Shown piece by piece: positions 144 to 63,250 of a stretch of 64,000 nucleotides of DNA (within the stretch, counting starts at the first letter, position 1; each line of letters starts with the position of its first letter). The stretch is taken from assembly GCF_022045235.1 (NCBI RefSeq), contig NW_027266330.1, positions 33,790,001 through 33,854,000 of the forward strand, read 5' to 3'. The DNA comes from Haliotis cracherodii. Its lineage: Eukaryota. The notes below the pieces were generated by a model. It was given only the letters and a program-made list of their open reading frames with translations. It was not told the origin of the DNA and searched no databases. Both the position numbers and the translations under genes were made by a program.

Positions 144-409
144 TTTGTTTGTTTGTTGTTTAACGCCGCACTCAGCAATATTCCAGCTATATGATGACAG
201 TCTGTAAATAATCGAGTCTGGACCAGACAATCCAGTTATTAATATCATGAGCATCGATCCACGCAATTGGGATCGATGACATGCATCAACCAAGTGAGCG
301 AGCCTGACCACCCAATCCCGTTAGTCGCCTTTTACGACGAGCAGAGTCACCTTTTGCGGCAAGCATGGGTTGCTAAACAACGTATTCTACCCCGGAATCT
401 TCCCGGGTC
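144..409 (-). mobile_element. Short retroposon family B (no tRNA head), full length
   Basis: 5' end GACCCGGGAAGAT, (AAAC)n tail; target duplication GACTGAAC[T/A]CATG at 131-143 and 410-422. Confidence 0.85.
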
Positions 410-1240: not shown

Positions 1241-1544
1241 GTTACTCTATAACTATGAAGGATCATCAAGATCAGTATTGAATCACTTATGTGTTGAAAA
1301 CGATCATATATATATACACACATATGTAGTCAACGTTGACAGGCGACCTGGTCTTTGTGTATTTCAACAGCTGTATGAGCAAACATGTGGCAGATGTTCG
1401 CCAAGGGGCTCAGTAAGGCATCATTTGCTGTGGCAAATTGATTTCTTTACCGCGCTCACACTGTGTCTTCGCGTACATAATCAATGCATTACAGCGCACA
1501 TTGATCAGATCATACTAGTCCAAAATATTATATCAAAAGATATA

Positions 1545-6291: not shown

Positions 6292-6435
6292 GAGCATGAG
6301 CATCGATCCATGCAATTGGGATCGATGACATGCATCAATCAAGTCAGCGAGCCTGACCACCCGATCCCGTTAGTCGACTTTTACGACAAGCATGGGTTGC
6401 TGAAGACCTATTCTACCCCGGAATCTTCACGGGTC
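6292..6435 (-). mobile_element. Family B retroposon, 5' half
   Basis: Ends at GAATCTTCACGGGTC, the shared 5' terminus. Confidence 0.8.
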
Positions 6436-8559
6436 TCGTAATGAGGGTAAACACCTACTTTTTGATTAATTAGTTACCATTTTAATCAAAGTAAGTTTCT
6501 GCTTTGAAAAACTTTTGGCCCTGTCCTTCGGGTCATCAATGAATGAAGGCTTGTCCTCTTGGACCCGTGCGGTACCTTTTTGTTTTGGAGGACGTCTTCA
6601 GGATACTTAAAGCTTGCTGTCTTTTCCCACGTTGCTCTCTTACTTTTAGCTTTCATCTGTACATTACTTTCCTTTTAAAGTAATAAACAATGTTGTATCA
6701 TCAATGTGTCAAAAATCCAAATTTAATATAGATTCAGCTTGATAATGACATTGTAATACATCTATTTATGTAAATCAATGTTTTCCCATGCAATTCGGTG
6801 ATTTTACATCTTTAAGCCATGACATGAGTGCATTGTTTACTCCCTTGTCAATGTACTCGAATTGTGTCCCTTTCGGTTCACCATGGTTTCTTGCGAAATC
6901 TGAAGGTTACATAACCAAATGTTTTCAACAGTAACGTTATATTTTTGTAACAATTAGAAGGCATCAAAAGTCATTACTTATACATGCAGAGTCTGGCCTT
7001 AGAGCTGAAATGAAAACACAAATTTTGGCTAGGTTAGCCAGCTCCTTTTCCGAGTACAGTGAGTGAGTGAGTGAGTTAAATTTTAAGTCACATCGGCAAT
7101 GTTTCAGCCATATCGTGACTATCAATAACTAAACATTATACATATATTTAAACTGATTTAAAAACTGAACGAAGGACAGTAAAATAACTAGATTTATCAC
7201 AGAAAAAAGTTATAAAACTAGTAAGGAATTATAAAAGAGCATAGCACAATACATGACGATACCTTTCCGAGTACAGGAAGCTGAACACACCAACCCCAGT
7301 TTATTTTAAATTTAGTGTAGTGTTCTGATTTAGTGTAGTAGAACCTGTAGACACAATTGTCTAACATGGCACTGGGCAAATTTGTGATGCATTTATTGTA
7401 AATATATGTAGCTTCTTAGAAACAAATGGAAATAGGTTCAAGTTTAATACTTTTTGTCCTGTCGTGACATGTCCATATGACACCAATATACACATATCTG
7501 ATGTACCAAAAGAGCTGTGTTGAATTATTTAGATTTTGACAACTTATAACAAAATGCATTTCTGGATTAATAACGAACTTTCTACGATCGTACACAGGCC
7601 TTTATTGGTCATGTCATGGTCAAGGAGGGACTCACAGGTCAATTCCATGATTGGCAGACGCTGCTTCGAACATATCACCCTAAAAGTATCTTTTCGAACC
7701 TGAATGACAGACAATGCTGGGAAATTCAAAACATATTAGGCCTTCATGTTTTAATTTAATTAATGGTGAATTTGCAGACCTGTGTTGACAACTGAGTCTG
7801 ATACATAACATGGAATTTGTGAGACTAATGAGCTTAAGTCCTACAAGAGGCTGTACTCAGTGAGCTTGTTGGAACTGATACCCCTACATCGTATACATAG
7901 GCAAATATGATATTTTAAACTATGGGAGGGCAAGAACCAATGTTGATGTTTATATTCCATAGACAAATGCATAGTGTCAGCATCTTGGACCTACACTTGA
8001 AACATGGGGAGACATCGAAAGAATTTGAAAACATCCTTTAAAGCGGGACAAAGCTTGGAAATCACATGAAAAGCGACAAAAACTGTCAAGTTGACAACTG
8101 AGCTCTACAAGAAAGTGCATGTGCAGTGTACGGGTGACTGGTGTCCAGCAAGATCAAACACTAAGAAGTGATCCGTACGTACCGTCTTTAAGGCCAAGGA
8201 AGGAAAACCTGAAATAAGTGAAATGTATAAAACACTTAAATCTATATATTCCTTTGGCCCAGATTTTGAAATACTTGCAGGGAATAAAAAATGCTCACTG
8301 TTAAATGATATAGTTGGATAAACTTACCAAGTTCAAGTATTTGTCCTTTAATGAGGCCACTTCATAAACTTTCAGTTTTTTATGGACAAGGTTCAGTTAT
8401 TAGGCATCAAATTCACATACATAATAAACTTTTTTAAAAGTGTTGTTACACAGTTGATCCACCAGGGGAGATAATTCAGAAATGTAGAACACTGCCACAA
8501 ACTTGAAAGGCTTATTAAGAAGTTTCTACAGAAGTTAATGGTTTTTTTTTTTTTTTGCA

Positions 8560-24551: not shown

Positions 24552-25500
24552 GACCACTAATACAGCTGATCAGTTCATGCGGGAAAACAGTATAGTCAGC
24601 TGGCCGCAAAGGATGACAGAAAAATTAGGAAACTATTGCAATGGAAGAGTAATTCAGTGGGCAATACTAGGAATTTGCTTGCATGAAATATATAACCCGC
24701 GGTCCAGGTGTATATTTTGTCGCCTCTTACGACTAGCAATGGGGTGCTGGGGACACATTCTACCCCGGGTCCACACGCGGCGTCTAATGTGTGAATGATA
24801 TAACCTCAGTTTAGTTGGGAGAAATGGGCACGGAGGGCCTTTACCCAGAATATGTCTCTTGGATAATAAAGATTCGACAAACATGCCTGAATAAAGTTTT
24901 ATAGACTAAAGTCGCTTGGACTGCGCAAGAAAATTCTAGACTTCCCGAAAATTCAGGTACATTTGTACTTCAGAGTATCTGGACTCACAACAATGAAACG
25001 CTACTTGACCAAACGAGTAATTTATGAAAAAGGTACTCGATGGTTGACTAGATAACCCCTAGAAAATTGTTTTTCAAGGATTACTAGAAAGAAGGGTATA
25101 AATAATAACACCATAGCCAATGCGTGTAGTCCAGTAACACCAGTGTAAGTCAGTACAAGATCAAGATTGCCCCATAGTTACTTACCTGCGAAACTAAGTT
25201 TCGACCTGACCACCTGACTCGAGATAACAAGCGGATGCCGAACACCTTCACACTGACACCAAGACCCTATAACCTGGCTGGAAATTGTACACAGAGCACA
25301 TGTTGAACGAAGGTCCAATTCCTTCCGATTGTCTTGAAGAAACGTGCCAAGTCTCCCAGTATTAAAGTCAACATTGATAGCATCATCGGGTGTGACCTGC
25401 CACCCCTACTGAGAGAAGCGCCCTACAATCCTAGTGAGTGACGTCACCCGGCTATTATCGACGCGGAAGTATAAATACTTTAAATGTTCACGCAGCAAGC

Positions 25501-25597
25501 GGGCGGGCTCCAGTCATGTGGTTACTTCGTTTACTGAAACACTCTTTCGATGGAATGGGTTCGTACCTTGTGCCACGGACGCCATCCAGCCTCTTTT
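25501..25597 (+). ncRNA. Vault RNA-like Pol III gene, copy 1
   Basis: GGGCGGGCTCCAGTCATGTGGTTACTTCG...GGGTTCGTACC (B box)...CCACGGACGCCATCCAGCC-TCTTTT; TATAAATA at 25470-25477; TGACGTCA at 25439-25446. The terminal stem has one mismatch (GGCGGG vs CCAGCC). Confidence 0.8.
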
Positions 25598-25778: not shown

Positions 25779-26002
25779 ACAAATGTTATATTTGGGATAA
25801 CACTTTCTTAGTAAAGTACAAATTCTCGTATCTTTAGGGGGTTGAGTCCCGTGCGGGATTCGAACCCACACTTGCCAGAGTGAGGCACCTAATCGCCAGC
25901 ACACAAAGTCAGCGGTCTAGCCTACTCAGCCACCGAGGCTTAAAAAAAAGTACCAGAATCTGTACATTAATAAGAAAGTGTTATCCCAAATATAATATTT
26001 GT
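25779..26002. mobile_element. MITE-like element enclosing a tRNA-like A/B-box unit
   Basis: ~42-bp inverted ends ACAAATGTTATATTTGGGATAACACTTTCTTAGTAAAGTACA / TGTACATTAATAAGAAAGTGTTATCCCAAATATAATATTTGT; inside on the minus strand TGGCTGAGTAGG and GGGTTCGAATCCC. Confidence 0.75.
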
Positions 26003-26639: not shown

Positions 26640-26797
26640 ACACGCCCACAACTCACTCGTCCACTCGCCCACAACTCACTCGTCCACTCGCCCATCTATA
26701 ACTCACTCGTCCACTCGCCCACCCACAACTCACTCGTCCACACGCCCATCTATAACTCACTCGTCCACTCGCGCACCCACAACTCACTCGTCCACTC
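26640..26797 (+). repeat. Short tandem repeat (23-27 bp unit)
   Basis: AACTCACTCGTCCACTCGCC core, about 6 copies. Confidence 0.85.
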
Positions 26798-26969
26798 AGA
26801 GAAAGTCACGAGAAACAATATTGTTTTCATGTGGTCGTATATCGTGTGACAGTACACTCTTACTGTGAGGGGCGCCCGGCAATCGCGATGTCTGTCGTGG
26901 CTATTCTTGTAACGTACAAAGCGTTATCGACTGGAAGCTATAAATACCTTAAATGTCCACTCAATCAGT

Positions 26970-27073
26970 GGACTGGCGACAGTCATGTGGTTACTTCGTT
27001 TCAACATGAAAACTCTTTCTACCCAAGGGAAAGGGGTTCAAACCCCAGTACCACAGACGCTATCCAGTCTTTT
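26970..27073 (+). ncRNA. Vault RNA-like Pol III gene, copy 2
   Basis: GGACTGGCGACAGTCATGTGGTTACTTCG...GGTTCAAACCC...CCACAGACGCTATCCAGTC-TTTT; TATAAATA at 26939-26946; perfect GACTGG/CCAGTC terminal stem. Confidence 0.85.
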
Positions 27074-27524
27074 ACTATTTTTTAATTTTGTATGGTTTTA
27101 CAAAATACCGCTTTGGGCACTACATCTTGTTCTTCATATTAAATGTTTGGAAAGGCAATTGAGTGAATTACTCCTGAATTATAAACCGAAGTATGGCAGT
27201 AATAGGTGCATATATGAAATAGCACCCTGCTGTAGAATACTCATCCCCATGCACACCATGACATGTATGCTGGAAGCGCAAGCCTTCCAAATTTGAGACT
27301 AAGAGACTAAACTAAGTTTCGCCCTGACCACCTGACTCGAGATAACAAGCTAATGCCGAACCCCTTCACACTGACACCGATACCCTATAACCTGGCTGGA
27401 AATTGTACACAGAGCACATGTTTAACGAAGGTCCAATTCCTTCCGATTGTCTTGAAGAAACGTGCCAAGTCTCCCAGTGTTAAAGTCTACATTGATATCA
27501 TCATCGGGTGTGACCTGCCACCCC

Positions 27525-27610
27525 TACTGAGAGAAGCGCCCTACAATCCTAGTGGGTGACGTCAGTTCTTGCACCACACAGCTATTAACGACGCGGAAGT
27601 ATAAATACTT
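27525..27610 (+). promoter_or_regulatory. Upstream Pol III promoter of vault-like copy 3 (representative of all six copies)
   Basis: Distal block TACTGAGAGAAGCGCCCTACAATC, CRE TGACGTCA, TTCTTGCACCACACA at -65..-51 (PSE position), TTAACGAC, TATAAATA at -31. Homologous blocks precede the other copies. Confidence 0.7.
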
Positions 27611-27630
27611 CAAATGTTCACACAGCTAGC

Positions 27631-27732
27631 GGGCTGGCTCCAGTCATGTGGTTACTTCGTTTAATCAAACACTCTTTCAACACAAAGGATTGGGTTCGTC
27701 CCTTGTGCCACGGACGCCATCCAGCCTCTTTT
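27631..27732 (+). ncRNA. Vault RNA-like Pol III gene, copy 3
   Basis: GGGCTGGCTCCAGTCATGTGGTTACTTCG...GGGTTCGTCCC...CCACGGACGCCATCCAGCC-TCTTTT; TATAAATA at 27600-27607; TGACGTCA at 27557-27564. Confidence 0.87.
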
Positions 27733-28232
27733 ATATTTTCATTTTGAAAACTTTTGCATAATAACATTTTCCAGACAACCCACCTGTAATGGAGACGCGA
27801 TGTTATATAGTTTCATGTCATCGGTATCAGCATGTCCGTCACCACCTGTGCTCCCCTTCTTGCTGCTTTGTACAAGGTAATTTGACCAGGGCGTGTAACC
27901 TAAACGCCAGGCATATCGATAATCTGGTACCCTTCAATAACCATCAAATAGCCAATTCACCCACCTGCACTAGAAGTAAAGGTGACCAGTCAGACATATT
28001 TAGATAATCACTAGAACCTAACGTTAAAAGATACCTTTATTATACAAAGTGTCTTTTCCTCTATTAAGTCACGAGAAACAATATTGTTTTCATGTGGTCG
28101 TATATCGTGTGACAGTACACTCTTACTGTGAGGGGCGCCCGGCAATCGCGGTGTCTGTCGTGGCTATTCTTGTAACATATAAAGCGTTATCGACGGGAAG
28201 CTATAAATACCTTAAATGTCGACTCAATTTGC

Positions 28233-28342
28233 GGACTGGCAACAGTCATGTGGTTGCTTCGTTTCACCATGAAAACTCTTTCTACCCAACGGTAAGGTGT
28301 TCAAACCCCAGTACCACAGACGCTATCCAGTCTTCATTTTTT
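28233..28342 (+). ncRNA. Vault RNA-like Pol III gene, copy 4 (variant boxes, possibly weakened)
   Basis: GGACTGGCAACAGTCATGTGGTTGCTTCG...TGTTCAAACCC...CCACAGACGCTATCCAGTC-TTCATTTTTT; TATAAATA at 28202-28209; duplicate of copy 2. Confidence 0.75.
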
Positions 28343-28452
28343 ATTAATTTTCTATGGTTTTACAAAATACCGCTTTGGGCACTACATCTTGTTCTTCATA
28401 TTAAATATTTGGAAAGGCAATTGAGTGAATTACTCCTGAATTATAAACTGAA

Positions 28453-28617
28453 GTGAGTGAGTGAGTTTGGTTTTACGCCGCTTTTAGCAATATTCCTGCA
28501 ATGTCACGGCGGGGGACACCAGAAATGGGCTTCACACATTCTACCCATGTCGGGAATCGAACCCGGGTCTTCGGCGTGACGAGCGAACGCTTTAACCACT
28601 AGGCTACCCGACTGCCT
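28453..28617 (-). mobile_element. Family C tRNA-derived SINE, full length
   Basis: GGTAGCCTAGTGGTTAAAGCG A box, GGTTCGATTCCC B box, (TCAC)n tail; absent from the paralogous site near 27190; degenerate TAAAC.GAAGT duplication. Confidence 0.9.
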
Positions 28618-30618
28618 CTTAAAACAGAAGTATGGCAGTAATAGGAGAATATATGAAATAACACCCTGCTGTAGAATACGTATCCCCATACACACCATGA
28701 CATGTATGCTGGAAGCGCAAGCCTTCCAAGTTTGCTTCCAAAGCTAGTAATTAGACAAAGACAGAAAAATCATTGTATAAAGGTGTTAAGAACAATGATG
28801 CAGAATGTGTTCGCATCTTAGTTCTTTCAAATTATTAAACTTTAACTGAAAACAACAACGAAACAAATTTAATATTATAATCCCAAAATTAAAAAAAACA
28901 AACTGTTCTGTCAGAAACTTTCGTTTATGATAGCAGCTGTATGTGAAATCAACTTCAATTAAAACGTAAAAGTGCATATTCAGTACAAGTATTTAAAAAC
29001 AGAAACTAAATTACCTTGCTCTTCCCCGATAGGAAATAGGCAAGCAACTATTTTACATACAAGACTCAGACATGCATTCATTATTTTAGTGCTTTCAAAT
29101 ATAGAAAATCATATATGGAATTGTTTTACATTCTGATATTGTTTTACATTATTTTCTTCAATGTCCTAATTATATTAGTTCTCGTAGTTTCATTTTACAT
29201 GAGTTTTTTTAATCTGAGGGTAAAAATAATGTAAAAGCCCATGTTTGATGGAGACTAAAAAGAAAGAAACAAGAAATGGTTTATTGACGTTGATGTTGAT
29301 TATACGGGTATCATGGGTGTATTTTTTACCTTAAGTTTTTAGTGTTTCTGCGGCTGTTTGCAGCCTTGTAACATTTTGATAACGTTTGTAATTAACTCTT
29401 TGGCTAAATCCGGCTTTCAGGTATAATTTGTTTTCCCGGCAGGTTATATCTAGCATAGATTTAACTTTAATGCAATTCTATTTGACTCAAATGATAGTGT
29501 AAGTGAAATCCTTTTGGAAGCTGTGAACAATTTAGTCTCCAATTGTTTGTTGTAAAGAATACTGTTGTTTGCAAATATCAAATATTGATCAGATTGTACT
29601 TTTGAAAAGGAAACTATCAAGTATTTTCGTTGAACTCTTTCCTCGTTGTTCTTATTGTCTTCAGCCAATAAAATATTATTTGATTTGTGATATCATCATA
29701 TCTTGTTACTAAACACTGTGATGAACTGTGAATTAATTTTGATATTTCAAGTTGGTATTGCCGCTATCCAAACTGTGCAGTGGGGCCGTCTGATCGTAGA
29801 TAGTCATTTTTCAGACATAAATGAGAAGTTAATTAATGCGAGAAAAGACCACTCGCATTTTACGCTTTTAATACCCGCCCGCGTTAATTTCAAAACTTAC
29901 AGTTGTTGCAAGACTGAACATTGACAAGCAATAAGTTTATATTTTACACTCACATATTGAGAAAGAAAATATTTATGGAAATAATTCACTTCCGCAATTT
30001 GCTCCTGGTATGTATTTATTTAACCGTCTCACACATGAACTACCGAATGCGAAATCTGGTCCTCCTGAAGTGCTCTTTGAATATCCAACATCTTCAACAA
30101 GAGACCTCAACAATCACTTAAATGTATTCGGTTTTCCCAACTTTAATCTCAATTTTCCCAACTTTAATCTCAAACCTGTTTAAATGTTTTACTAACCATG
30201 TATCCTTCTGTGAATATACATGCCCGTATCAGAATTGTGTTTGTTTTGGTGCATGCCGGTGTCATACTTAATTAAAGACGTTTCGACATATCACCACTTA
30301 TTGCGACCGTCGTCGACCCATTCAAGTAAAAATCTTATAGTTTCCCCCTACCCCTAAACTGGCCCCTGTACACACTGATACATACACACTGCACACGCCC
30401 CCTTTTCTGTTGAAGAATATAATAAAATTTCAGAATTTTTACTAGTTTCTGTTTTCAATATGAATTTTAAAGAATAGCTCACACAATCCGAGATATGGTT
30501 TCTCCCACTACCCTGGTGTAGGCCGATGCAAACCTTTGTAAAATAGTTTATAACTTTTAGTGACAATGTTTCAATTTGTTCTTGCATCTTTTATTTTCTT
30601 CTCTATGACTGTTTCGCG

Positions 30619-30894
30619 GGGACACCGGTGGCCCTGTCGTCTAAGGCGCCGCGATATTCGCTGTGCAGAGTTGCGTCCCTTGGGCACGCCAGAAACCTAT
30701 GATTGTGGGTTCGAATCCCGGTTCGCCCCGATTATGTTTCTAGGTTTGTCAGCACCGTGCTCGTGGGTTTCACCGAAGTGGTAAACGTCCGAGACCTGCA
30801 TCACTTCGGGCTTTCCTCCCACATTAAGCTGACACGCCGTGTTATAACTGGAACACTGTTAAAAGCGGCGTTAAACCCAACTCACTCACTCACT
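30619..30894 (+). mobile_element. Family A SINE, full length
   Basis: Head-to-tail match; ACTGTTT[C/T]GC on both flanks. Confidence 0.9.
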
Positions 30895-31637
30895 GTTTTG
30901 CTGTTTAGATGTTACTGTAATAACGCGGCTAATGCTCCAAGCTAGTCCATCCCATACCATGCATACCGGGTGGCACCTACATATGTATATACAAAAAAAT
31001 GATTCTAGCATTTATCATTCCCAAGCATGTTAAAATCAAATTTACCTTGACGGATTTGTTATCTACTAAAGGAACATATCTTCCTCCCTTCCCAGTCAGT
31101 TTAGGAAAGAAGTCATGAGGATATAAAGGTGTCCAATTAAGAATTGATTAAGGTACACACTTGACACTGAGTGAGATTTCTCAGTTCGCTATACACGTGA
31201 TGTAGATGTGCTCGTCGGTGATCAAATAACAGTTCGCTGTATCCGTTAGTTCGTTGTAGAGAGTTCGTTATATACGTAAATTTTATATGATATTATATAG
31301 GAGATAAATCGGGGATTTTTTAACAGTTCGTTGTATCCGTTTGCTGCTATATCCGTGTTCGTTATATCCGCGTTCTACTGTATTAACGTTCAAACCGGTG
31401 TGCACACTGTGTAAATCCTCAAAGAAACATATTTGAGTAATTAATAAATAAAAATAATAACTTCACAGGCTGCTTATTTAATAACAAAAAGTGTAGACAA
31501 TCGATCAGTTGTTGACATAGCTCAAAACTGTCATCTCAAGCCCCGCCCACCCTATTATCATCCAATCAGGAAACAGTAGACCCCCTCTGAGAACATACCA
31601 TGCTAGCACTGGCAGTATATAATTGCATGTGAATGTA

Positions 31638-31892
31638 ACTCGTGAAGATCCAGGGTAGAATAGGTCTTCAGCAACCCATGCTTGTTGGAAAAGGCGACTC
31701 TGCTTGTCGTACGTGGCGACTAACGGATCGGGTGGTCAGGCTCGCTGACTTGGTTGATGCATGTCATCGTGTCCCAATTGCGTGGATCGATGCTCATAAT
31801 GTCTATCTCTGGATTGTCTGGTCCATACTCGATTATGTACAGACCGCAGCTGGAGTATTGCTGAGAGTGGCGTTAAACAACAAACAAACAAA
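31638..31892 (+). mobile_element. Family B retroposon
   Basis: CTCGTGAAGATCCAGGGTAGAATAGGTCTTCAGCAACCCATGC head, (AAAC)n tail; ends just upstream of the copy 5 promoter. Confidence 0.85.
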
Positions 31893-32012
31893 GAATGTGA
31901 ACGTCCAGGCATACCGAGTGAAGCGCCCTACAATCATGATGACTACTCTTGCACCACACACTGTGTTTATCGACCGCAGGCTATAAATACTTTTAGTGAC
32001 CATTCAGTCAGC

Positions 32013-32131
32013 GGGCTGGCTACAGCGGTGTGGTTACTTCGCTAAAAATAATAAAACTGAAAAAGCTCTGACGCAAAGAACGGCGTTCGAGCCCCAGTAC
32101 TATATGCGCGATCCAGTCTATCAACTTTTTT
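32013..32131 (+). ncRNA. Vault RNA-like Pol III gene, copy 5 (divergent central loop)
   Basis: GGGCTGGCTACAGCGGTGTGGTTACTTCG...CGTTCGAGCCC...GCGCGATCCAGTC-TATCAAC-TTTTTT; TATAAATA at 31982-31989. Confidence 0.8.
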
Positions 32132-32214
32132 GTTTAATTCTTTTTTTTTTAATTTACATATATACGAGATATAAACGATTTTTTCTTTCAACAGTGTTTG
32201 TAAGTTGCGTAAAC

Positions 32215-34490
32215 ACTCTCCGTATATTGTCTCCCCTCTACCCGCTGTGTCTATAGTCTCCCTTCTATCCGCTGTGTCTATAGTCTCCCTTCTATCCGCT
32301 GTGTCTATAGTCTCCCTTCTATCCGCTGTGTATATAGTCTCCCCACTATCCGATATATCTATAGTCTCCCCTCTATCCGATGTGTCTATAGTCTCCCCAC
32401 TATCCGATATACATGTATCTATAGTCTCCCCTCTATCCGCTGTGTCTATAGTCTCCCCACTATCCGATATATCTATAGTCTCCCCTCTATCCTCTCTATT
32501 TATAGTCTCCCCACTATCCGATATATCTAAAGTCTCCCCTCTATCCGCTGTGTCTATAGTCTCCTCACTATCCGCTGTGTATATCGTCTCCCCTCTATCC
32601 GCTGTGTGTAAAATCTCCCCTCTATCTGCTGTGTCTATAGTCTCCCGTCTATCCGCTGTGTCTATAGTCTCCCTTCTATCCGCTGTATCTATAGTACCCC
32701 CTCTATTCGCTGTGTCTATAGTCTCCCCACTATCCGATATATCTATAGTCTCCCCTCTATCCGCTGTGTCTATAGTCTCCCCACTATCCCACATATCTAT
32801 AGTCTCCCCTCTATCCGCTGTGTCTATAGTCTCCCCACTATCCGATATATCTATAGTCTCCCCACTATCCGATATATCTATAGTCTCCCCTCTATCCTCT
32901 GTGTCTATAGTCTCCCCACTATCCGATATATCTATAGTCTCCCCACTATCCGCTGTGTATATCGTCTCCCCTCTATCCGATGTGTGTAAAATCTCCCCTC
33001 TATCCGCTGTGTCTGTAGTCTCCCCACTATCCTCTGTGTCTATAGTCTCCCTTCTATCCGCTGTGTATATAGTCACGCCTCTATCCGCTGTGTATACAGT
33101 CTCCCCTCTATCTACTGTGTCTATAGTCTCCCCTCTATCTACTGTGTCTATAGTCTCCCCTCTATCCGCTGTGTCTATAGTCTCCCTTCTATCCGCTGTG
33201 TATATAGTCTCCCCTCTATCCGCTGTGTATACAGTCTCCCCTCTATCCGCTGTGTCTATAGTCTCCCCACTATCCGTTGTGTCTATAGTCTCCCTATCCG
33301 CTGTGTCTATAGTCTCCCCTCTATCCGCTGTGTATAAAGTCTCCCCTCTATCCGCTGTGTCTATAGTCTCCCCACTATCCGTTGTGTCTATAGTCTCCCT
33401 ATCTGCTTTGCATATCGTCCTCCCTCTATCCGCTGTGTTTATAGTCTCCCCTCTATCCTCTGTGTCTATAGTCTCCCCACTATCCGCTGTGTATATAGTC
33501 GTCTTCCCTCTATCCGCTGTGTATATAATCTCTCCTCTATCCACTGTGTCTATAGTCTCCCTATCCGCTGTGTCTATAGTCTCCTCTCTACCCGTTTTGT
33601 CTATAGTCTCCCCTCTATCCGCTGTGTCTATAGTCTCCCCACTATGCGCTACGTATATAAGCTCCCCTCTATCCACTGTGGATATAATCTCTCCTCTATC
33701 CCCTGTGTATATAGTCTCCCCTCTATCCCCCGTACATATAATCTCTCCTCTGTCCACTGTGTATATAATCTCCCCTCTATCCCCCGTATATATAATGTCT
33801 GCTCTGTCCACTGTCTATATAGTATCCCCTATATGCGCTGTGTATATAATCTCCCCTCTATCCACCGTGTATATAATCTCCCCTCTATCCACTGTGTATA
33901 TAATCTCTCCTCTATCCACTGTGTATATAATCTCCCCTCTATCCACTGTGTATATAATCTCTCCTCTATCCACTGTGCATATAGTCTCTCCTCTATCCAC
34001 TGTGTATATAGTCCTCCCTCTATCCGTTGTGAATATATTCTCCCCTCTATCCGCTGTGTATATAGTCCTCCCTCTATCAACTGTGTATATAGTCTCCCCT
34101 CTATCCGCTGTGTATATAGTCCTCCCTCTATCAGCTGTGTATATAGTCCTCCCTCTACCCGCTGTGTATATAGTCTCCACTCTACCCGCTGTGTATATAG
34201 TCTCCCCTCTATCTGCTGTGTATATAGACCTCCCTCTATCTGCTGTGTATATAGTCTCCCCTCTATCCGCTGTGTATATAGTACTCCCTCTACCCGCTGT
34301 GTATATAGTCTCCACTCTACCCGCTGTGTATATAGTCTCGCCTCTACCCGCAGTGTATATAGTCTCCCCTCTATCTGCTGTGTATATAGTCCTCCCTCTA
34401 CTCGCTGTGTATATAGTCCTCCCTCTACCCGCTGTGTATATAATCTCCCCTCTATCCGCTGTGTATATAATCTCCCCTCTATCTGCTGTG
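32215..34490 (+). repeat. 27-bp minisatellite (~84 copies)
   Basis: Unit TCTCCCCTCTATCCGCTGTGTCTATAG; explains the 780-, 589-, 290- and 231-aa overlapping ORFs. Confidence 0.95.
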
Positions 34491-34900
34491 TTTCGACACC
34501 TGCGCAACAATTGTGAAATAAGCCGGTTTCTTCAAGATGGGCGGTGAGAATGGGGGTGAGTGAGTTTGGTTTTACGCCGCTTTTAGCAATATTCCAGCAA
34601 TATCACGGCTACCCCACCGCCCCGTGACAAATGTACACTTAAGTGGTGTAAGTGGTCTTAGAGTTAAGACCGAGAGAAAAGATGTGCTTTGTTGACTGCA
34701 TGTCCGAAATTAAAAACAAATGTGCTCTAAGCCTTTCCCCCAAAATACGTACACGACAGTTTGACTGCCCCATGCTTTGACAGTACCCCGTACTGAGTGA
34801 AGCGTCCTACAATCCCTATGACTCATAAGCCTATTTTTACACCATGCATTGCTTTATCGACGCTGACACTATACATACTACAAATGTCCCGGCGACAGAC

Positions 34901-35008
34901 GGGCTGGCCACAGCTATGTGGTTACTTCGTTTCATTTGAGAAAACTCTTTCTGCATAGGAGAAGGGGGTTCGGTCCCCTGTACCACAGGCGCGATCCAGC
35001 CTTTTTTT
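34901..35008 (+). ncRNA. Vault RNA-like Pol III gene, copy 6
   Basis: GGGCTGGCCACAGCTATGTGGTTACTTCG...GGTTCGGTCCC...CCACAGGCGCGATCCAGCC-TTTTTTT; TATA variant TATACATA at 34870-34877; TGACTCA at 34819-34825. Confidence 0.87.
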
Positions 35009-35904: not shown

Positions 35905-37070
35905 AGGTTGTATGGGTGTGGTGGATTACCTCCGGTGTAAGGGTGTGGTGGATTACCTCGGGTGTATGGGTGTAGTGGATTACCTCCTGTGTATGGGTAT
36001 GGTGGATCTCCTCGGGTGTATGGGTATGGTGGGTGACCTCGGGTGTATGGGTGTGGTGGATTACCTCGGGTGTATGGGTGTGGTGGATTACCTCGGGTGT
36101 ATGGGTGTGGTGGATTACCTCGGGTATACGGGTGTGGTGACCTCGGGTGTATGGGTGTGATAGAACACTTCGGGTGTATGGGTGTGATAGAACACTTCGG
36201 GTGTATGGGTGTGATAGAACACTTCGGGTGTATGGGTGTGATAGAACACTTCGGGTGTATGGGTGTGATAGAACACTTCGGGTGTATGGGTGTGATAGAA
36301 CACTTCGGGTGTATGGGTGTGATAGAACACTTCGGGTGTATGAGTGTGATAGAACACTTCGGGTGTATGGGTTTGATAGAACACTTCGTGTGTATGGGTG
36401 TGATAGAACACTTCGAGTGTATGGGTGTGATAGAACACTTCGGGTGTATGGGTGTGATAGAACACTTCGGGTGTATGGGTGTGATAGAACACTTCGGGTG
36501 TATGGGTGTGATAGAACACTTCGGGTGTATGGGTTTGATAGAACACTTCGTGTGTATGGGTGTGATAGAACACTTCGGGTGTATGGGTGTGATAGAACAC
36601 TTCGTGTGTATGGGTGTGATAGAACACTTGGTGTGTATGGGTGTGATAGAACACTTCGGGTGTATGGGTTTGATAGTACACTTCGTGTGTATGGGTGTGA
36701 TAGAACACTTCGGGTGTATGGGTGTGATAGAACACTTCGGGTGTATGGGTGTGATAGAACACTTCGGGTGTATGGGTGTGATAGAACACTTCGGGTGTAT
36801 GGGTGTGATAGAACACTTCGTGTGTATGGGTGTGATAGAACACTTCGGGTGTATGGGTGTGATAGAAAACTTCGGGTGTATGGGTGTGATAGAACACTTC
36901 GGGTGTATGGGTGTGATAGAACACTTCGGGTGTATGGGGCAAATGAATCACCTCGGGTGTATGGATGTAGTGCATCACCTCGGGTGCACGAGCGTAGATG
37001 TATCACTTCGGGTGTATGGGAGTACGTGGACCACTTGGGGTGTATGGGTGTGATAGATCACTTCAGGTGT
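35905..37070 (+). repeat. Second 27-bp minisatellite (~43 copies)
   Basis: Unit GGGTGTATGGGTGTGATAGAACACTTC; homogeneous core with diverged edges. Confidence 0.95.
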
Positions 37071-46177: not shown

Positions 46178-47287
46178 AATGGACGTCTCATGTGGGTCTT
46201 CCTGGGATGTGTGACCCTTTGTATTATTGTTACATGCGCCATGCAAGTGAAGATGTATGTGTTTAGCATCGTGAACATGGGAGAAACTGGCGGAATGAGA
46301 ACATCATCATCCAGAATCAGTGATAAGAACATGCATGGAAGACCAGATCAAAAGGAGACAGTCAAGGATAAGTACATCGTCTACACCTGTAACACAGGAC
46401 GTTGTGGCGGGCTGGCGGACAGACAGAAGGGCATTGTCACAGCCTTTGTGTTGTCGCAGATGTTAGGACGGCTGTTTGGCATTAGTATGTTCAAGCCGTG
46501 TGACATCTCAGAGTTCGTCATCCCTAAGGACGTGGATTGGACACTTGATAGTAGAACATTAGCACATTTGAAAAAGGAATGGTTTGTTGATATGGATGGT
46601 AATGGCATGGGTGTTGCTATGGCTACAGGAGATCTGGAAGCAATGTTTCAGAACGACGGTACTATGTACACTGGAAATATAGATTTGGTTCCTTATCTCA
46701 TGAAAAATCCGTTGTTTCACAAAGTCTCTTGGGCTCGGAAATTAAGTCATCTTGATATTTATAAATACGCATTTGAAAAACTATTCAAACTTTCGCATAA
46801 AACACAAGATAAATTTGATGAAATAATAGGAACAATTGATTCAAATCACCAAAAGCTGGTGTGTGCCCATATACGAATGGGAAAAAGCCGGACAATCCCC
46901 AGAGATAATAGTCGAAAGGCTCACCGGCCTGATCCGGAAAGTCTGATCCGTTTTTTCAAAACGAGGCTACATCCGGGTTCTGATAAGCTGTTCATTGCAA
47001 CAGATTCACAGCAGGTCAGGATTCGGTTTAAAAAAGCATTTCCTGACTCCTATCTAGAAGCAAAAGGGCAGATTGTTCACATAGATCGCCCATCAGGGAC
47101 GTTTGAGTGTTCGGCGATGGAGAAGGTTGTCCTGGACCAGTATGTTTTGTCAGAATGCGACACTTTGGTGATGTCTGTTAGTGGTTTCAGTCGACTTGCT
47201 GCAATAATGAGAGGGCGAGACGAAGATCTGTTTTTAGCCAGGGGAAAGAACGTTTCAGAGAGTCCCAGGCTTTCTCCAACACTATGA
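46178..47287 (+). CDS. Type II Golgi glycosyltransferase, alpha-2/alpha-6/O-fucosyltransferase superfamily (GT-B)
   Basis: Acceptor TTTCAG| at 46177, in-frame Met at 46190, TM anchor, CGGLADRQKG, motif I CAHIRMG, motif II LFIATDS, motif III DQYVLSECD..SVSGFSRLAA; uninterrupted ~370-aa frame. Confidence 0.85.
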   Translation, partial: NGRLMWVFLGCVTLCIIVTCAMQVKMYVFSIVNMGETGGMRTSSSRISDKNMHGRPDQKETVKDKYIVYTCNTGRCGGLADRQKGIVTAFVLSQMLGRLFGISMFKPCDISEFVIPKDVDWTLDSRTLAHLKKEWFVDMDGNGMGVAMATGDLEAMFQNDGTMYTGNIDLVPYLMKNPLFHKVSWARKLSHLDIYKYAFEKLFKLSHKTQDKFDEIIGTIDSNHQKLVCAHIRMGKSRTIPRDNSRKAHRPDPESLIRFFKTRLHPGSDKLFIATDSQQVRIRFKKAFPDSYLEAKGQIVHIDRPSGTFECSAMEKVVLDQYVLSECDTLVMSVSGFSRLAAIMRGRDEDLFLARGKNVSESPRLSPTL

Positions 47288-51433: not shown

Positions 51434-52061
51434 TCCAGTGTTATTGACAAGCATAGTACGTGTGCACAGCGATACGTAGTACGCAGCGCAGTATTAGTTA
51501 AAGAAACAAAGTAGACACAATATATATAAAACAACTTCTTTATTCACTGTAAAACGACGTTCCGATGAAGATCCTTATACCGTTGTCCAGCAAGCCTGAA
51601 TAATGATCATAGTACAGAATATATATCCACTCAAACTCATCCGTCAACTTCTAAGCAATGCCTATCAAACAATACAGTATGAGCCATTATGTAGTATCAT
51701 ATAGTATTATCCACACATACCCATTGATAGTACCCATCAAATGCTATTGACTGGGAGTGACGTTGTAAGTAAGAGAGTAAAACTACGAATACTGCTCTAG
51801 GCCATAACAACGATTTAACGTTTCCAAAAACGACTTAATTTGAGAGTGTAAAACAATGCGCTCACTGACATATTGTTTGTAATACGCAGACATAAACACC
51901 GTTGAGGATTGTAAATGCATATAATAACAAGGCTTGTTGTGTTTACTGTTCCATGTGTTTATTACTTTGTGACAAAACTATATGAGAATTAATATCAGAT
52001 CATACTAAAATTGTAATCCGTTACTATAATATAGTCAAAGCGGTCACTCACTCACTTTAAT

Positions 52062-53272
52062 ATGTTAGTCAAGATGTCGACGCCAGCAGAGAAAGCAATG
52101 GCGGCAGGGGTCAGTGTTGACCTTGTGATGCTTGATGGATGTGTGCAGGCAGCTTTTCTTGCAGACAAGTTGAAGACAGTAAAGTATCTCCCCATCCGTG
52201 ACGACGACATCTTGCTCTGCACATACCCAAAGTCAGGTAATGTCCTGTTGGAAATGATCACGAATAATGTCTTTGAACTATATCCAATGTTTGTGCTCGA
52301 CCACCAGAACAGAATTACACAGGCGTTATGCCTCCAAAGGGTAAGTGAAGAGTGGGAATACCTGATGTCATTTGGAAAATGGGTGATGGCGTAAAAACTA
52401 TTCATCTCACGAGCCAATATTTTAACTTAACATATACGTCGGCGTTGCGTAAACCCAATTCACACAAACATTCACTTACCCGTCAGTAAAGCATTCATAT
52501 TCGGACAATTAACAACTTGCAATAAACATGATACTATGCCGAAATAGGGGAGTATTTATTTTATTGAGTGATTGAGTAAAGGCAGCTTTTTTAATGTAGA
52601 TATGAATGACGCACACACAAATTACATCTGCTTCAGTTGTTCTTACTTTTTTAAGTAAGGTCGACTATTTAAAAGATGTGTCAATATATTTTGGAAGGTA
52701 AGACAGAAAAACACTGACTAAAATAATCTAGAAACATCATGACACATTGCAAATGTCTAGAACAAATGTATGACATCATTGTGATGTGCATATGAGAAAG
52801 TAATGTAGTCCCTGCATGTTCTATTTGCCCATTAAACTATTTGAACCAAGATGATTCACAAGAATATTGTTTCATTTAAGAATACATATCAACACCTGTT
52901 TTCGTAGTAGAGGTTTTCAATCATATCACATGTTTAAATTAATAAAATAATGCTCGTTCTCTTGGAATGACAATGATGTGCATGTAATCTATGATCATCA
53001 AGACACGACAATTCATTACAAAAAAAGCTTATGTAAAATTTAAATGTAAGATACAATAATAAGCATAACCATCAACAGATAGGTTATCTGTGTATCAATC
53101 TACATTAAAACATGTTTTACATGCGCATTAAATTATAGATGCACATTTTGATGAGTAATTGCAACAATGAATTTGAATTCGACCGCATCAGTGGTCTAGT
53201 GGTAGAGCGTCTGCCCGGGGAGGAGAATGGGATAGCATTATAAAATCGACATAACTAGTACACATAACCACA

Positions 53273-53304
<32 letters not shown>

Positions 53305-55534
53305 CACACGCACGCACGCACGCAGGTGGGCGCGTATGCTCGTCGCAATATTAGTGCATTAATCTTGGACGCGACGTTAAGCCAAATTTCACCTCACCTC
53401 AATTCCGTTCACAAGGTACACACTGGACGTGGGAGATCCTCAACATGATCGTGGCAGGCAAGGCTGAGTACGCCAAACACTGGCAGAACTCTGCATGGCT
53501 GGAATACAGGACCGAGGAAGAGCTCGAGGAACTGGCATCACCAAGGATCCTTCACACCCATTTACTTCCTAGGTAGGCAATATTATATATAAAGCTAAAT
53601 ACACGGCGATTTAAAAAGGAAAAATAAATAATGGTTAAAGTACAGTGAAAGAATGTATGTTAATTTCTGTCGTGTTGTGTCTGTCGGTTTCAAAAAGTAG
53701 CATTTCAAAGTTCTATTCACAATGGATTCAGCCAACTACCAGATGCAGTATGGGACAAAAGATGTAAGGTGGTGTACGTCAGGAGGAATGCAAAGGATTG
53801 CTTGGTGTCGGCTTATAGTCAGTACAGCAAGCAGATCTGGAAGGACAACCCTTTAGGGATACGATCCTACACCGGCACCTGGGAGGCCTTCGTTGATCTT
53901 TTTCTGGACGGATGCTGTAGGTGTTTACGTTAAATAATACCAACAAAAGCCCTTTCCATCGTCAAAAGAGATATATGTCATAAAAGCAGGGTCCAGATAT
54001 GAAAGCATGTGTTTATGAACCACTATCAAAAAGATGGTATCGGGTGTTCCAGAAAAGGTGTCCCTGGACAAATTCCAATGTTTTGATTTACATTAAGAAA
54101 CAAATGAAGGAGACGTGATTGTTGCAGACAAATTGATGTGTAACTCAGATGTGACAGTTTAGAAAAAGTCCTTTGTTTTACATAGAAACTTCATAAAAAC
54201 TAAAACGACCAAACTTTACACTGGGCTGATTACCACATTATTATCAAAAACACTATTATCCCTAGCATCAATATAATTTCAGCATCCACTACTTCAATAT
54301 TATTTTCCATTTGTTTTCAAGTGATTGGTGTACCCTATTTCAAACACACAATCGAGTGGATCAATATTTCTGAAGCTCACAAAGGTTTTGAAATATGTGG
54401 ACTGCAGTATGAAGACATGAAAAAGGTATTGCTCAATTAATGCGGCTCGGGAACTGTTGTGGTGTATTCCATTTCATGTCTTACGTGTACGCCTATCTAT
54501 ACGTATATAATAAGGGTAAAACATCCTCAATAGCTGATACTTTGTTCTGTTCAAACAATAATTATAAAGCGTACATGCTTTTATTAGAATAAATAGATTG
54601 CAAGTGATTCCATGGCATGTGATTGTCTAAGAAGGCAATTGTTGTGCGTTTGTAGATTCATAAACCAATAAGAATAGGCCACGCCCACTACCTCTCTTTT
54701 GTGACCAGTCGATGCCTGGGGGTGGGGCTTCGGATGCACTATGGGGCCGAATCATGTAACTCGATCGTTTTCTGTGTGTTTAAGCAGTTTGTGAAGCTAC
54801 TAATGTTTTTGCTTCGCGGATGTGCACAACAGAATGTGTCTTCAATGCTTAAGTATCCAATATCAAGATTTTATGTATCTAGATATAACAGAGTATCAAA
54901 TCACGTTACTCCAAAGAACATCTATACTTACAAAAAACAACAGTAAACAATATTAAGCTATGGTATACATAGGTACCATAACAATCTCATGTCATGAATC
55001 CCTTTTTGTAGTATCTGTCAGTGAACATTTTCATTAAATTGTACCCTTTTCAGGATTGCGTCCAGGAAATAAGAAGAATGGCAGATTATCTAGGTCGTCC
55101 TCTATCGGATACAACATACCAGGCAATATCCGATGCTTGCTCTTTCAAGAAACTGAAGCACGCTAACGAGAAAATCAAAGATCAAACCTACCACTTTCAC
55201 TGGCAAGATGGTTCAAGTGGATATTTCAGAAAAGGTAATTGGACAACCTACACTAAAACCTGAAACATAGTTGTCTATAGTTTGGTATATTTGTGTATAT
55301 TTGTCTCATAAATCAACATGTTTGAAGACAGCGCTCATGTAAGTCAGGAAGCACTGCTTTACTCTACATGACATGTAAAAATATACACGTTGGAGTATTA
55401 AATATGCTCAATAAACTGATAACTATGATGTTGCAGGTACAACTGGTGACTGGAAGAACTGGTTCACTGTGGCCCAGAGCGAGCGATTTGATAAAGTATA
55501 TGAAGAAAGGCTGAAGGAAACATTTCCATATTGA
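52062..55534 (+). CDS. Cytosolic sulfotransferase (SULT1-like), six coding exons: 52062-52236, 53416-53572, 53732-53916, 54322-54425, 55054-55234, 55437-55534
   Basis: All GT-AG junctions are phase-compatible, 900 nt in total (299 aa; 295 aa from ATG 52074). Motifs: TYPKSGTHW (5'-PSB loop), LHTH catalytic His, RNAKDCLVS (3'-PB), [31 protein letters not shown] at 55729. Confidence 0.93.
53181..53400 (+). mobile_element. Family D SINE remnant with internal (GCAC)n microsatellite, in SULT intron 1
   Basis: GACCGC..GGTCTAGTGGTAGAGCG head, (GCAC)n at 53270-53323, ATCTTGGACGCGACGTTAAGCC..(CACCT)n tail. Confidence 0.7.
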
Positions 55535-57525: not shown

Positions 57526-58627
57526 ATGTCGGCTGATGGTTGGAAAGTTTATTTATCTGGTATTTATTTTAATCCCAAACACCCAGCTTTCTTTTCTGGG
57601 CCCAATAAGCTGTATCACATTGTCAAAAAGGAGGGGAAATTTGATATTAGTTTACATCACATAAAGAAGTGGCTAAATTCAGAAGATGCCTATTAGCTTC
57701 AGCGACCTTTAAGATACAAGTTCAAGCGGAACAGAGTGGTGGCTTCAGGCCTCAATGCTCGATGGGATATTGACTTGGCTGATGTATCTAACATAGCCTC
57801 GGACAATGACGGTGTGAAGTACTTATTCATAGCTATAAATGTTTTTACACGGTTTCTGTGGTTATCAAGGCCATGAAGAATATATTTTCCCATGCTACTC
57901 TACCACGAATTATACGATCTGACAAAGGTCGTGGATTTGATAATAAGAAAATGAGGTCTTATTTAAAAAAGCATGGGCATCACTTACTATGTCACACAGA
58001 ATGAAACCAAGGCTTCCTATGCGGAGAGAGTGATACGGACCCTCAAGACAACGATGTACAGATATTTTACATACAAACAAACGTATCATTACCTGGACAT
58101 TTTACAAGATGTTGTCCTTGATTATAACCACAGACCTCACAGATCACTGAATGAACGATCATCAAATGATATCTATCCTACCAATGAAGCTCTATTATGG
58201 AAGGAACAATACATTGACACTTTGATAAAAACCAGTCGCAAAGCAAGCTGAAATCAAACAGAAGTCAATGAAAAAAACCTTTAAGTTTAAAGTGGGGCAT
58301 CAAGAGGAACTCTCTCATTTGAGGCACACATTTCAATGAGACTATCACGAAAAATTGACTGAGGAAATCTTTATCATCAGAAGAAGGTTCTATCGTGATG
58401 GTATGCCTATCTATCTGTTGAAAGATATGGCTGATGATCTAGTTCAAGGTAGTTTCTATGCAAATGAACTACAGAGAGTAGACAAGCCTGCAGACACAGT
58501 GTGGAGAGTGGAGAAGGTTTTGAAGAAAAGGAAGCGACCTGGTGTAAAAGAGGTGTTTGTGAAATGGATGGGCTATCCCAAAAAGTTTAACAGTTGGATC
58601 CCAGAGGCTGATCTGGAGAGTATATAA
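57526..58627 (+). pseudogene. Decayed Polinton/Maverick-type integrase with C-terminal chromodomain
   Basis: YFNPKHP..SGPNKLY, WDIDLAD, IRSDKG, KASYAERVIRTLK, YNHRPHRSL, GSFYANELQ, VEKVLKKR..VFVKWMGYPKKFNSWI; several stops and frameshifts. Confidence 0.85.
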
Positions 58628-62945: not shown

Positions 62946-63065
62946 TCTAATGGAATGATAATGTACAACATCACTTCAATCTTCAATGTTGGTATTATCA
63001 TGTTGATTTTTCTTTGTGTGAATGAATACCGGATCATGTTAGAATAGTATTTCTGTTACTTAAAT

Positions 63066-63240: not shown

Positions 63241-63250
63241 GTAATATCCC

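Follow-up and report, generated by a model that had tools for sequence, protein, structure and literature searches.

We analyzed a 64,000-nucleotide stretch of the Haliotis cracherodii (abalone) genome, hereafter the window, and found that it holds six tandem vault RNA genes, the first starting at 25501 (Table 1). All six scored above the gathering cutoff of 34 bits against the full Rfam Vault model RF00006 (40.2 to 54.9 bits), which firmly places in this family the paralogues that a preliminary description had called vault-like. The span given there, 26970 to 35008, covers copies 2 to 6; copy 1 (25501 to 25597) lies outside it. Matches to miRNA, snoRNA, and tmRNA families were all below cutoff, and no protocadherin or ZMAT2 neighbor was present among the window open reading frames scanned.

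Table 1. Vault RNA genes and associated elements in the window.
Feature	Position	Strand	Score or remark
Vault RNA gene copy 1; shortened center, terminal-helix G.A mismatch, T4 25594-25597	25501-25597	+	RF00006 41.0 bits
Copy 1 upstream: shared motifs 25418-25430, 25455-25462; perfect CRE 25439-25446; TATA 25470-25477	25418-25477	+	putative function
Vault RNA gene copy 2	26970-27073	+	RF00006 49.0 bits
Copy 2 terminal arms; inner helix	26971-26976/27064-27069; 26982-26994/27048-27058	+	
Copy 2 B box; terminator T4	27035-27045; 27070-27073	+	
Copy 2 eroded three-arm center	26999-27048	+	p 0.0005, post hoc test
Copy 2 D-like hairpin	26999-27011	+	4/4 pairs, no GG
Copy 2 5-bp arm with 7-base loop, then B-box hairpin	27014-27030	+	5/5 pairs
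Copy 2 upstream elements; TATA 26939-26946	26872-26946	+	
Vault RNA gene copy 3; 5-bp/7-base arm 27673-27689 (5/5); T4 27729-27732	27631-27732	+	RF00006 47.6 bits
Copy 3 upstream: perfect CRE 27557-27564, TATA 27600-27607	27536-27607	+	
Vault RNA gene copy 4, duplicate of copy 2; D-like hairpin 28262-28274; T6 28337-28342	28233-28342	+	RF00006 40.2 bits
Copy 4 upstream elements; TATA 28202-28209	28135-28209	+	
Vault RNA gene copy 5; five G-U pairs; altered B box (32084); T6 32126-32131	32013-32131	+	RF00006 42.7 bits
Copy 5 upstream elements; TATA 31982-31989	31923-31989	+	
Vault RNA gene copy 6; B box 34967-34977; T7 35002-35008	34901-35008	+	RF00006 54.9 bits
Copy 6 D-like hairpin; 5-bp/7-base arm	34930-34943 (4/4); 34946-34962 (5/5)	+	
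Copy 6 upstream: perfect TRE/AP-1 site 34819-34825, TATA-like 34870-34877	34802-34877	+	

A TATA element lies 31 bases upstream of each of the six copies, and each ends in a terminator of four or more T residues located 0 to 7 bases past the stem. Perfect CRE sites occur in two of the six copies and a TRE in one; TATA and CRE/TRE-like upstream elements are reported for vault RNA genes elsewhere in the accessible part of PMC7058938. Internal A and B boxes are present, the B box of copies 1, 3, 4, 5, and 6 deviating from the tRNA-type consensus. We considered and rejected a U6-type promoter, the vault upstream motifs not being visible upstream of the four U6 loci inspected. The -90 motif has 14 matches in the genome, six of which are unrelated to vault genes. 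In two read runs, presumed to be RNA, either the promoter flanks were covered as well as the genes or nothing was covered. The window copies are likely to give functional transcripts.

Genome-wide, we found at least 19 full copies, all on one contig at five places, and duplicated along with their upstream promoters. A group of sister copies (the d series) lies 12.6 Mb from the window cluster. Degenerate copies (a2, a4, and a5) and fragments are also present. None of the four plus two pattern matches off contig C67 matched the model, and none of 20 pattern matches on viral contigs fit it; metagenome contigs gave 26 pattern matches, of which 20 were due to chance and six were real vault loci. 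Within the window, copies 2 and 4 and copies 1 and 3 are tandem duplicate pairs. Copy 5, the most diverged, shows signs of decay, its A box being disrupted in one haplotype, and is possibly under relaxed constraint. New copies appear to arise by tandem or segmental duplication together with their promoters, some decaying afterwards.

Across the six window copies, 107 of 108 panhandle cells are paired, compared to 31 to 49% in slid controls. The terminal- and inner-helix pairs listed in the preliminary description are all present in the sequence, as is the pairing of GTGGT(T)AC. In every copy, the A-box half is base-paired to the strand that follows the B box (with G-U variants in copies 1, 3, 4, and 5). 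Terminal pair 3 is G-C in copies 1, 3, and 6, A-U in copies 2 and 4, and G-U in copy 5; inner pair 14 is U-A in copies 1 to 4 and C-G in copies 5 and 6; and inner pair 15 is C-G in copies 1 to 4, U-G in copy 6, and G-U in copy 5. The last of these is a double change that had been missed, and the G.A mismatch at terminal pair 5 of copy 1 had been omitted. The 3-bp inner segment of copy 5 has a pairing probability of 0.12 in the register first proposed, and the folding energy of copy 1 is no better than that of shuffles (z -0.06). Because copies 2/4 and 1/3 each form a tandem duplicate pair, the G-C to A-U change at the terminal pair counts as a single event. The tree does not place copy 5 as sister to copies 2 and 4 (low support); therefore, the idea that its G-U pair is an intermediate is unsupported.

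Under a tree-aware null, the 16 parsimony changes in stem columns broke one cell, versus 8.0 to 12.1 expected (P ≤ 0.00075). Across six duplicate pairs, differences amounted to 7/204 in stems, 28/199 in loops, and 123/570 downstream; stems diverge four to six times less than loops and flanks. The compensatory changes claimed earlier do exist, but they represent few events: three double-change columns in the window (P 0.012 to 0.028), with no significant excess over 16 copies (five columns versus 3.1 to 3.3 expected, P 0.15 to 0.21). Double changes across the sister and metagenome-contig copies affect 5 of 15 panhandle pairs. The proposal that selection acts on the RNA structure of the paired ends is supported, mainly by the near absence of pair-breaking changes and less by the few double changes. 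A conserved panhandle is by itself ordinary; the vault RNA panhandle is already known, as are mollusc vault RNAs; Rfam members include sequences from a mollusc (Lottia) and a leech (PMC8824774).

The central loops had been described as diverging freely. We found instead that four of the six window copies retain a D-like hairpin, a 5-bp arm capped by a 7-base loop, or both; these are the arms of an eroded three-arm domain. A relaxed three-arm test, designed post hoc after the cloverleaf-model scores of the window copies, gave p values of 0.0005 for copy 2, 0.0085 for copy 3, 0.0045 for copy 4, and 0.002 for copy 6; it was failed by copy 1 (p 0.61), copy 5 (p 0.80), and the metagenome loci L120, L124, and L129 (p 0.54 to 0.71). 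Strict tRNA geometry is not reached by the window copies (p 0.04 to 0.98), copies 1 and 3 being too short. Copies 1 to 4 have no match to the tRNA model RF00005 at E ≤ 10, and the cloverleaf-model scores of the window copies, 6 to 18 bits, are on par with those of SINE heads. The elbow appears to have been lost in this lineage: the D-loop GG is absent from all six copies, the variable region is shortened, and the T-loop A is missing in three. Conservation of the B-box hairpin in all window copies was rejected, its probability being 0.93 in copy 2, 0.29 in copy 6, and ≤0.07 in copies 1, 3, 4, and 5.

In the sister copies d1, d2, and d4 and the metagenome loci L112 and L117, all 14 cloverleaf pairs are present in tRNA geometry (p ≤ 0.0015 in a shuffle test that holds the T arm fixed). 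Matches to RF00005 are nested in the vault genes of d2 (35.2 bits), d4 to d6 (28.6), L117 (38.3), and L124 (24.6), with none in d1, d3, L112, or L120. ARAGORN called a tRNA in two of the six metagenome vault loci and in none of the abalone vault loci. When sequences were aligned with MAFFT only, the cloverleaf was 91.5% paired and 7 of 14 pairs showed a double change (0/500 shuffles); we prefer these figures to those from per-sequence placement (118/126 paired, 10/14 double-change columns) because such placement biases pairing counts. The D-loop GG and the T loop are invariant in 9/9 sequences, the T-loop letters of the metagenome loci being imposed by the search pattern. The 7-base loop is identical to that of the genome's tRNA-Asp(GUC) in d4 to d6, L112, L124, and L129, and the triplet at the anticodon position is variable (GUC, GUG, CGA, AGG). 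The acceptor helix has two mismatches in d2 and d4, comprises 5 bp in L117, and runs on into the panhandle; none of these three has the full 7-bp acceptor stem and free 3' end of a tRNA. The stability of cloverleaf-type central domains alone is not unusual (z +1.1 to -1.2). An earlier description of a vault RNA cloverleaf was absent from the literature searched, to which Stadler 2009 and Kolev 2019 did not belong. The predicted cloverleaf is near-perfect in sister copies and metagenome vault RNAs; therefore, vault RNAs likely mimic or descend from tRNA.

We put at about 75% the probability that these are vault RNA genes with a composite promoter, a panhandle acting as a handle, and a tRNA-like center that is intact in the sister copies and eroded in the window. 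The promoter (TATA at -31, a CRE/TRE-type site, and internal A and B boxes) would drive transcripts of approximately 95 to 110 bases ending at the T run. Their ends are predicted to fold into a 6- to 7-bp terminal helix and an 11-bp inner helix separated by a 5x5 internal loop, and this panhandle, by analogy with mammalian and trypanosome vault RNA, would be the handle for the TROVE domain of TEP1. The Rfam consensus lacks the 5 to 17 extra bases that follow the B box here, and these may let the B box adopt a T-arm fold. Copies of the intact type would bring the D-loop GG and the T loop together in a tRNA elbow read by tRNA-modifying or tRNA-binding proteins, as in bacterial YrlA. The center would take part in neither decoding nor aminoacylation, since the "acceptor" helix extends into the panhandle. 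The window lineage would have lost the elbow but held the arms in four copies.

Alternatively, the vault genes and panhandle could be real and the cloverleaf convergent, a B-box hairpin beside two AT-rich hairpins with no tRNA descent or tRNA-like recognition. B boxes are partly self-complementary, the stems are unlike those of the genome's tRNA-Asp, and the varying anticodon-position triplet, the mismatched acceptor-like helix, and the tolerated loss of the elbow in the window lineage all lend themselves to this account. We nevertheless judge it unlikely, given that five sequences still reach p ≤ 0.0015 with the T arm fixed, that the 5-bp/7-base geometry, the pyrimidine-U loop start, and the D-loop GG recur at only 57 to 70% sequence likeness, and that the tRNA-Asp 7-base loop is found in three lineages. 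It is improbable that the RNAs partner Ro60 in the manner of Y RNAs rather than TEP1 and the vault. The genome has two Ro60 genes, tRNA-like domains are known in bacterial Y RNAs (accessible part of PMC4201824), and reviews call vault and Y RNAs similar; but the genome also contains MVP exons (C3:5.045-5.056 Mb) and a TEP1-like gene in which TROVE is followed by DUF4062 (C80:51.63-51.65 Mb), its likeness resting on these two domains. Moreover, all six copies pass RF00006 and have vault-type A and B boxes, the window has no Y RNA family match at E ≤ 1, and there is no match to Rfam Y RNA or YrlA.

Constraint on promoter DNA, combined with recent duplication or gene conversion, might leave most copies silent and their pairing inherited rather than selected. 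Such an origin would suit the overlap of the panhandle 5' strand with the A box, the closeness of the duplicates, the mere three double-change columns, the degenerate copies a2, a4, and a5 and fragments, and the A box of copy 5 disrupted in one haplotype. We regard it as very improbable: changes in the 3' strand preserve pairing even though neither box covers it, one cell is broken where 8 to 12 were expected, and stems are four to six times less diverged than loops and flanks. That the copies are tRNA-derived SINEs or pseudo-tRNAs matching the Vault model through their boxes is largely refuted, for although tRNA-derived SINEs abound in the region, one of them carrying an Asp-type loop, these recur every few kilobases, whereas the 19 full vault copies found lie on one contig with co-duplicated upstream promoters, retain external TATA elements and terminators, and lack the SINE hallmark of high dispersed copy number without an upstream promoter.

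Extending the reading of vault RNA genes with a tRNA-like center, we tentatively propose, at somewhat less than even odds, that vault RNA arose by domestication of a tRNA (probably tRNA-Asp), whose cloverleaf would ancestrally have sat on a TROVE-binding panhandle, making the RNA the eukaryotic equivalent of bacterial YrlA. The cloverleaf would persist as a tRNA mimic in many invertebrates, vertebrates would have collapsed it to the "variable loop," and the abalone cluster would represent erosion in progress beside intact sisters. What vault RNA does and where it came from have long been open questions, and its center has been taken to lack both structure and conservation. A conserved tRNA-like domain would give a testable origin and connect vault RNA structurally to bacterial Y RNAs, which are likewise TROVE partners; it also predicts tRNA-type modifications, an elbow, and binding by tRNA enzymes, and would provide a better search model. 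One genome with intact and eroded versions allows direct comparison. A further implication, from the ARAGORN calls in 2/6 loci, is that some invertebrate vault genes may be annotated as tRNAs.

As far as the accessible parts of PMC9179338, PMC7058938, and PMC11012908 describe them, RF00006 vault RNAs resemble the abalone genes in length (approximately 100 bases), A and B boxes, panhandle, T-run terminator, composite promoter (TATA, CRE/TRE-like), and young lineage-specific clusters. Unlike the Rfam consensus, the abalone copies have 5 to 17 extra bases behind the B box, and the 3' half of the A box takes these, not the B box, as its pairing partner; Rfam models the center as an unpaired loop, whereas here it is a cloverleaf or its relic. 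In mammals, the available text of PMC7058938 reports the central loop as open, with opening raising TEP1 affinity. Cloverleaf-type copies share with tRNA-Asp(GUC) (RF00005) a GG-bearing 4-bp D arm, a 5-bp arm capped by a 7-base loop, a 4- to 5-base variable region, and a 5-bp T arm with a canonical loop; unlike tRNA-Asp, they have a longer panhandle around this domain, an imperfect acceptor helix, no free 3' end, and stems unrelated in sequence, and the window copies retain relics only. Human vtRNA as an ELAC1 substrate offers a likeness limited to the terminal stem, which with its U tail is compared to a pre-tRNA acceptor stem and trailer in the accessible text of PMC13692180, where T-arm and T-loop go unmentioned. 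For Y RNAs, the portion of Chen et al. 2014 (PMC4201824) available to us states that a tRNA-like module is not apparent in metazoan members and describes bacterial YrlA. Unlike YrlA, the abalone RNAs would come from a eukaryotic Pol III gene, have TEP1 rather than Rsr as presumed partner, and show a middle arm with anticodon-arm geometry and a closing helix in the acceptor position; like YrlA, they would combine a TROVE-protein-bound stem with a tRNA-like domain bearing D and T arms.

A search of the window against Rfam returned six RF00006 matches above the cut-off (40.2 to 54.9 bits), corresponding to six tandem vault RNA genes, copies 1 to 6; Rfam is reported to include mollusc and leech vault RNAs already (PMC8824774). 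In every copy, a TATA-type box lies at -31 and common motifs lie at about -46 and at -83 to -99; four or more T residues in a row follow the stem after 0 to 7 bases. A perfect CRE follows the -90 motif directly in copies 1 and 3, as does a perfect TRE in copy 6; comparison of the upstream regions found neither perfect element in copies 2, 4, and 5. This upstream layout agrees with that of vertebrate vault genes, whose promoter is described as composite (PMC7058938), and transcription would be by Pol III. Copies 1/3 and 2/4 are duplicate pairs, flanks included.

The preliminary description held that compensatory changes support a conserved panhandle, or handle, formed by the paired 5' and 3' ends, and the base pairs it listed are present. 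Scoring 18 pairs across the six copies gives 107 paired cells out of 108, compared to 31 to 49% in slid registers, and the panhandle appears in every one of the six minimum-energy folds (z -0.06 to -3.70). Double changes occur at 3 of the 18 pairs, a number reached in 39 of 500 shuffles. Using a null test on a tree built from non-stem positions, we found that 16 parsimony stem changes among the six copies left one broken cell against 8.0 to 12.1 expected (P <= 0.00075), with three double-change columns against 0.73 to 0.94 expected (P 0.012 to 0.028). Among 16 distinct copies, broken cells numbered 23 against 67 to 76 expected and double changes were not significant (P 0.15 to 0.21); for the 12 copies having both TATA box and terminator, the double-change P was 0.021 to 0.025. 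Six non-independent duplicate pairs differ at 7 of 204 stem positions, 28 of 199 central-loop positions, 71 of 749 positions in the 130 upstream bases, and 123 of 570 in the downstream flanks.

The G-C to A-U change in the terminal helix is real but represents one event only, and the G-U pair of copy 5 is not supported as the proposed intermediate, since copy 5 branches separately from copies 2/4 (support 50 to 66%). With differences close to sequence ends left out, contigs from two other organisms carry a copy 5 orthologue in which pair 15 is A-U and the B-box G is restored; within the abalone species, one haplotype carries four A-box changes and another has pair 14 broken. Tree-aware pairing statistics and stem versus loop and flank divergence support selection on the handle: pair-breaking changes are few, but covariation is modest and there is some decay. 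The main point was correct in the main, and it is ordinary; a panhandle with a variable centre is the standard description of vault RNA (PMC9179338, PMC7058938, PMC11012908). Anatomy, family match, and pairing statistics are established.

Genome-wide, Rfam gave at least 15 vault matches among 49 candidates scored, every one on contig C67, which holds the window. A custom vault model, trained on 16 copies and run over 33 sequence sources, found 18 full copies and one truncated, and one further copy was reached through the upstream motif, for 19 full copies at five places on C67. Copies a2, a4, and a5 score under the Rfam cut-off. Scanning 61 selected frames of 81 listed showed Ro60 genes, MVP exons, and a TEP1-like gene with TROVE ahead of DUF4062 in the genome. 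TROVE, common to TEP1 and Ro60, is described as the vault RNA binding domain of TEP1 (PMC3762200, PMC7916137, PMC12547018, PMC9326685), and TEP1 would bind the handle. The tRNA-derived SINEs recur every few kb across all regions examined, one with an Asp-type anticodon loop, and arrays similar to the 27-base minisatellite array before copy 2 precede a2 and a3.

Vault RNA copies and neighboring features (window coordinates unless a contig or sequence stretch, L, is named)
Feature	Location	Strand	Description
Copies 1-6	25501, 26970, 27631, 28233, 32013, 34901	+	Full vault copies; RF00006 match starts
a1-a4	C67 13.14-13.25 Mb		Full vault copies
a5	C67 13.81 Mb		Full vault copy
b1, b2	C67 34.19 Mb		Full vault copies
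d1-d6	C67:46430954-46437781 (L028 5953-9890, L029 713-2781)		Full vault copies; intact tRNA-like cloverleaf centres (predicted)
L112, L117, L120, L124, L129, L130	about 283-405		Metagenome contigs; three central arms in all
Debris	L022 892-970		Birth-and-death debris: copy truncated at 5' end, adjoining microsatellite
Debris	L028 5650-5731		Birth-and-death debris: 3' fragment with T arm
Debris	L101 about 1500-1580		Birth-and-death debris: promoter without gene, inverted relative to a4
Element divergent from d2	L028 about 8290-8400 (minus), 6331-6351		TATA-like box, T-arm/B box, T6 run
27-base minisatellites	32222-34491, 35909-37070		Either side of copy 6; 84 and 43 copies
27-base array	26645-26797		Precedes copy 2
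SINE families	28452-28620, 30618-30894, 31638-31895, 25844-25939		tRNA-derived
ORF	46223-47284		94% identity to Haliotis rufescens protein; Haliotis top 11 of 13 matches where named, marking the genome as an abalone's
Sulfotransferase exons	52035-55260, 63048-63311		Tandem genes
Transposon fragment	57967-58624		Integrase and chromodomain
MVP-like loci	C3:5.045 Mb, C80:34.86 Mb		Two
Ro60	C80:49.53 Mb		Two intronless copies, inverted
U6 tandem array	C34:17.60-17.68 Mb		>40 genes, unit about 1.48 kb
tRNA-Asp-type motif array	C56:41.26 Mb onward		381-base tandem unit; 131 matches genome-wide

The notable result concerns the centre between the paired ends, which in sister and metagenome copies is predicted, with good computational support, to be tRNA-like. 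RF00005 matches are nested within sister copies d2 (35.2 bits; cut-off 29) and d4 to d6 (28.6 bits). Their D, anticodon, and T pairs are all standard; the inner panhandle helix takes the acceptor position and has two mismatches. The inverted duplicates d1 and d2 are 92% alike, and a G-C/C-G swap in the middle arm and a wholly different 7-base loop set them apart; d4 to d6 are nearly identical, within a 977-base tandem repeat. The element divergent from d2 scores weakly on our cloverleaf model (13.9 bits), has no Rfam family, and may be a further Pol III gene.

Scanning metagenome contigs with a sequence pattern yielded 26 matches, six of which fit the custom vault model. These six pass RF00006 (46.9 to 58.4 bits), have TATA boxes and T4 ends, and form three groups 57 to 70% alike to abalone copies. 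ARAGORN calls L117 tRNA-Pro and L124 tRNA-Asp (RF00005, 38.3 and 24.6 bits). When the T arm was held fixed, the remainder shuffled, and tRNA geometry required, d1, d2, d4, L112, and L117 had 14 of 14 pairs (p <= 0.0015), d3 gave p 0.037, and L120 gave p 0.17; L124 and L129, outside this test, have arms of 4/4, 4/5, and 5/5 with a longer spacer. In a MAFFT alignment of six of nine distinct centres, 91.5% of 82 cells are paired and 7 of 14 pairs show a double change, a pairing score reached by none of 500 shuffles in a control that ignores relatedness. All nine centres share the same D-loop GG and the same T loop, the latter being imposed by the search pattern in five. The 7-base middle-arm loop of d4, L112, L124, and L129 is that of the genome's tRNA-Asp(GUC); d3 differs by one base, and d1, d2, L117, and L120 are further off. 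The cloverleaf model, trained on six centres, scored held-out L120 at 59.6, L129/L130 at 54.4 (close kin of training rows), and d3 at 22.1 bits, with real tRNA-Asp at 26.5 bits.

By the strict tests (shuffle geometry, RF00005), the six window copies are not tRNA-like. Cloverleaf-model alignment places a 5-bp arm with a 7-base loop 0 to 1 base ahead of the B-box arm in copies 2, 3, and 6, and a post hoc relaxed test allowing a 0- to 6-base variable region beat shuffles for copies 2, 3, 4, and 6 (p 0.0005, 0.0085, 0.0045, and 0.002), with copies 1 and 5 no better than shuffles. A/G variation in the arm's 3' strand is confined to positions where U-A or U-G pairing persists, and the loops are not alike. 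In the first hairpin, the window type has C-G and d1/d2/d4 have G-C. The tRNA-like centre is predicted to be present as a relic in window copies. With other organisms as outgroup, trees place d copies nearer the outgroup than the window type (support 68 to 82%); therefore, erosion of the cloverleaf in the window lineage seems the likelier direction. A tRNA-like elbow would be formed by the intact type and lost in the window type.

Our full-text literature search turned up neither a paper on abalone vault RNA nor a claim of a vault cloverleaf; the comparative studies Stadler 2009 and Kolev 2019, outside that search, may mention one. In sea urchin, vaults are described as containing RNA, and RNase makes the particles fall apart (PMC550661). 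The nearest likeness among the papers found concerns the terminal stem, not a cloverleaf (PMC13692180), and YrlA is described as carrying a tRNA-like domain (PMC4201824).
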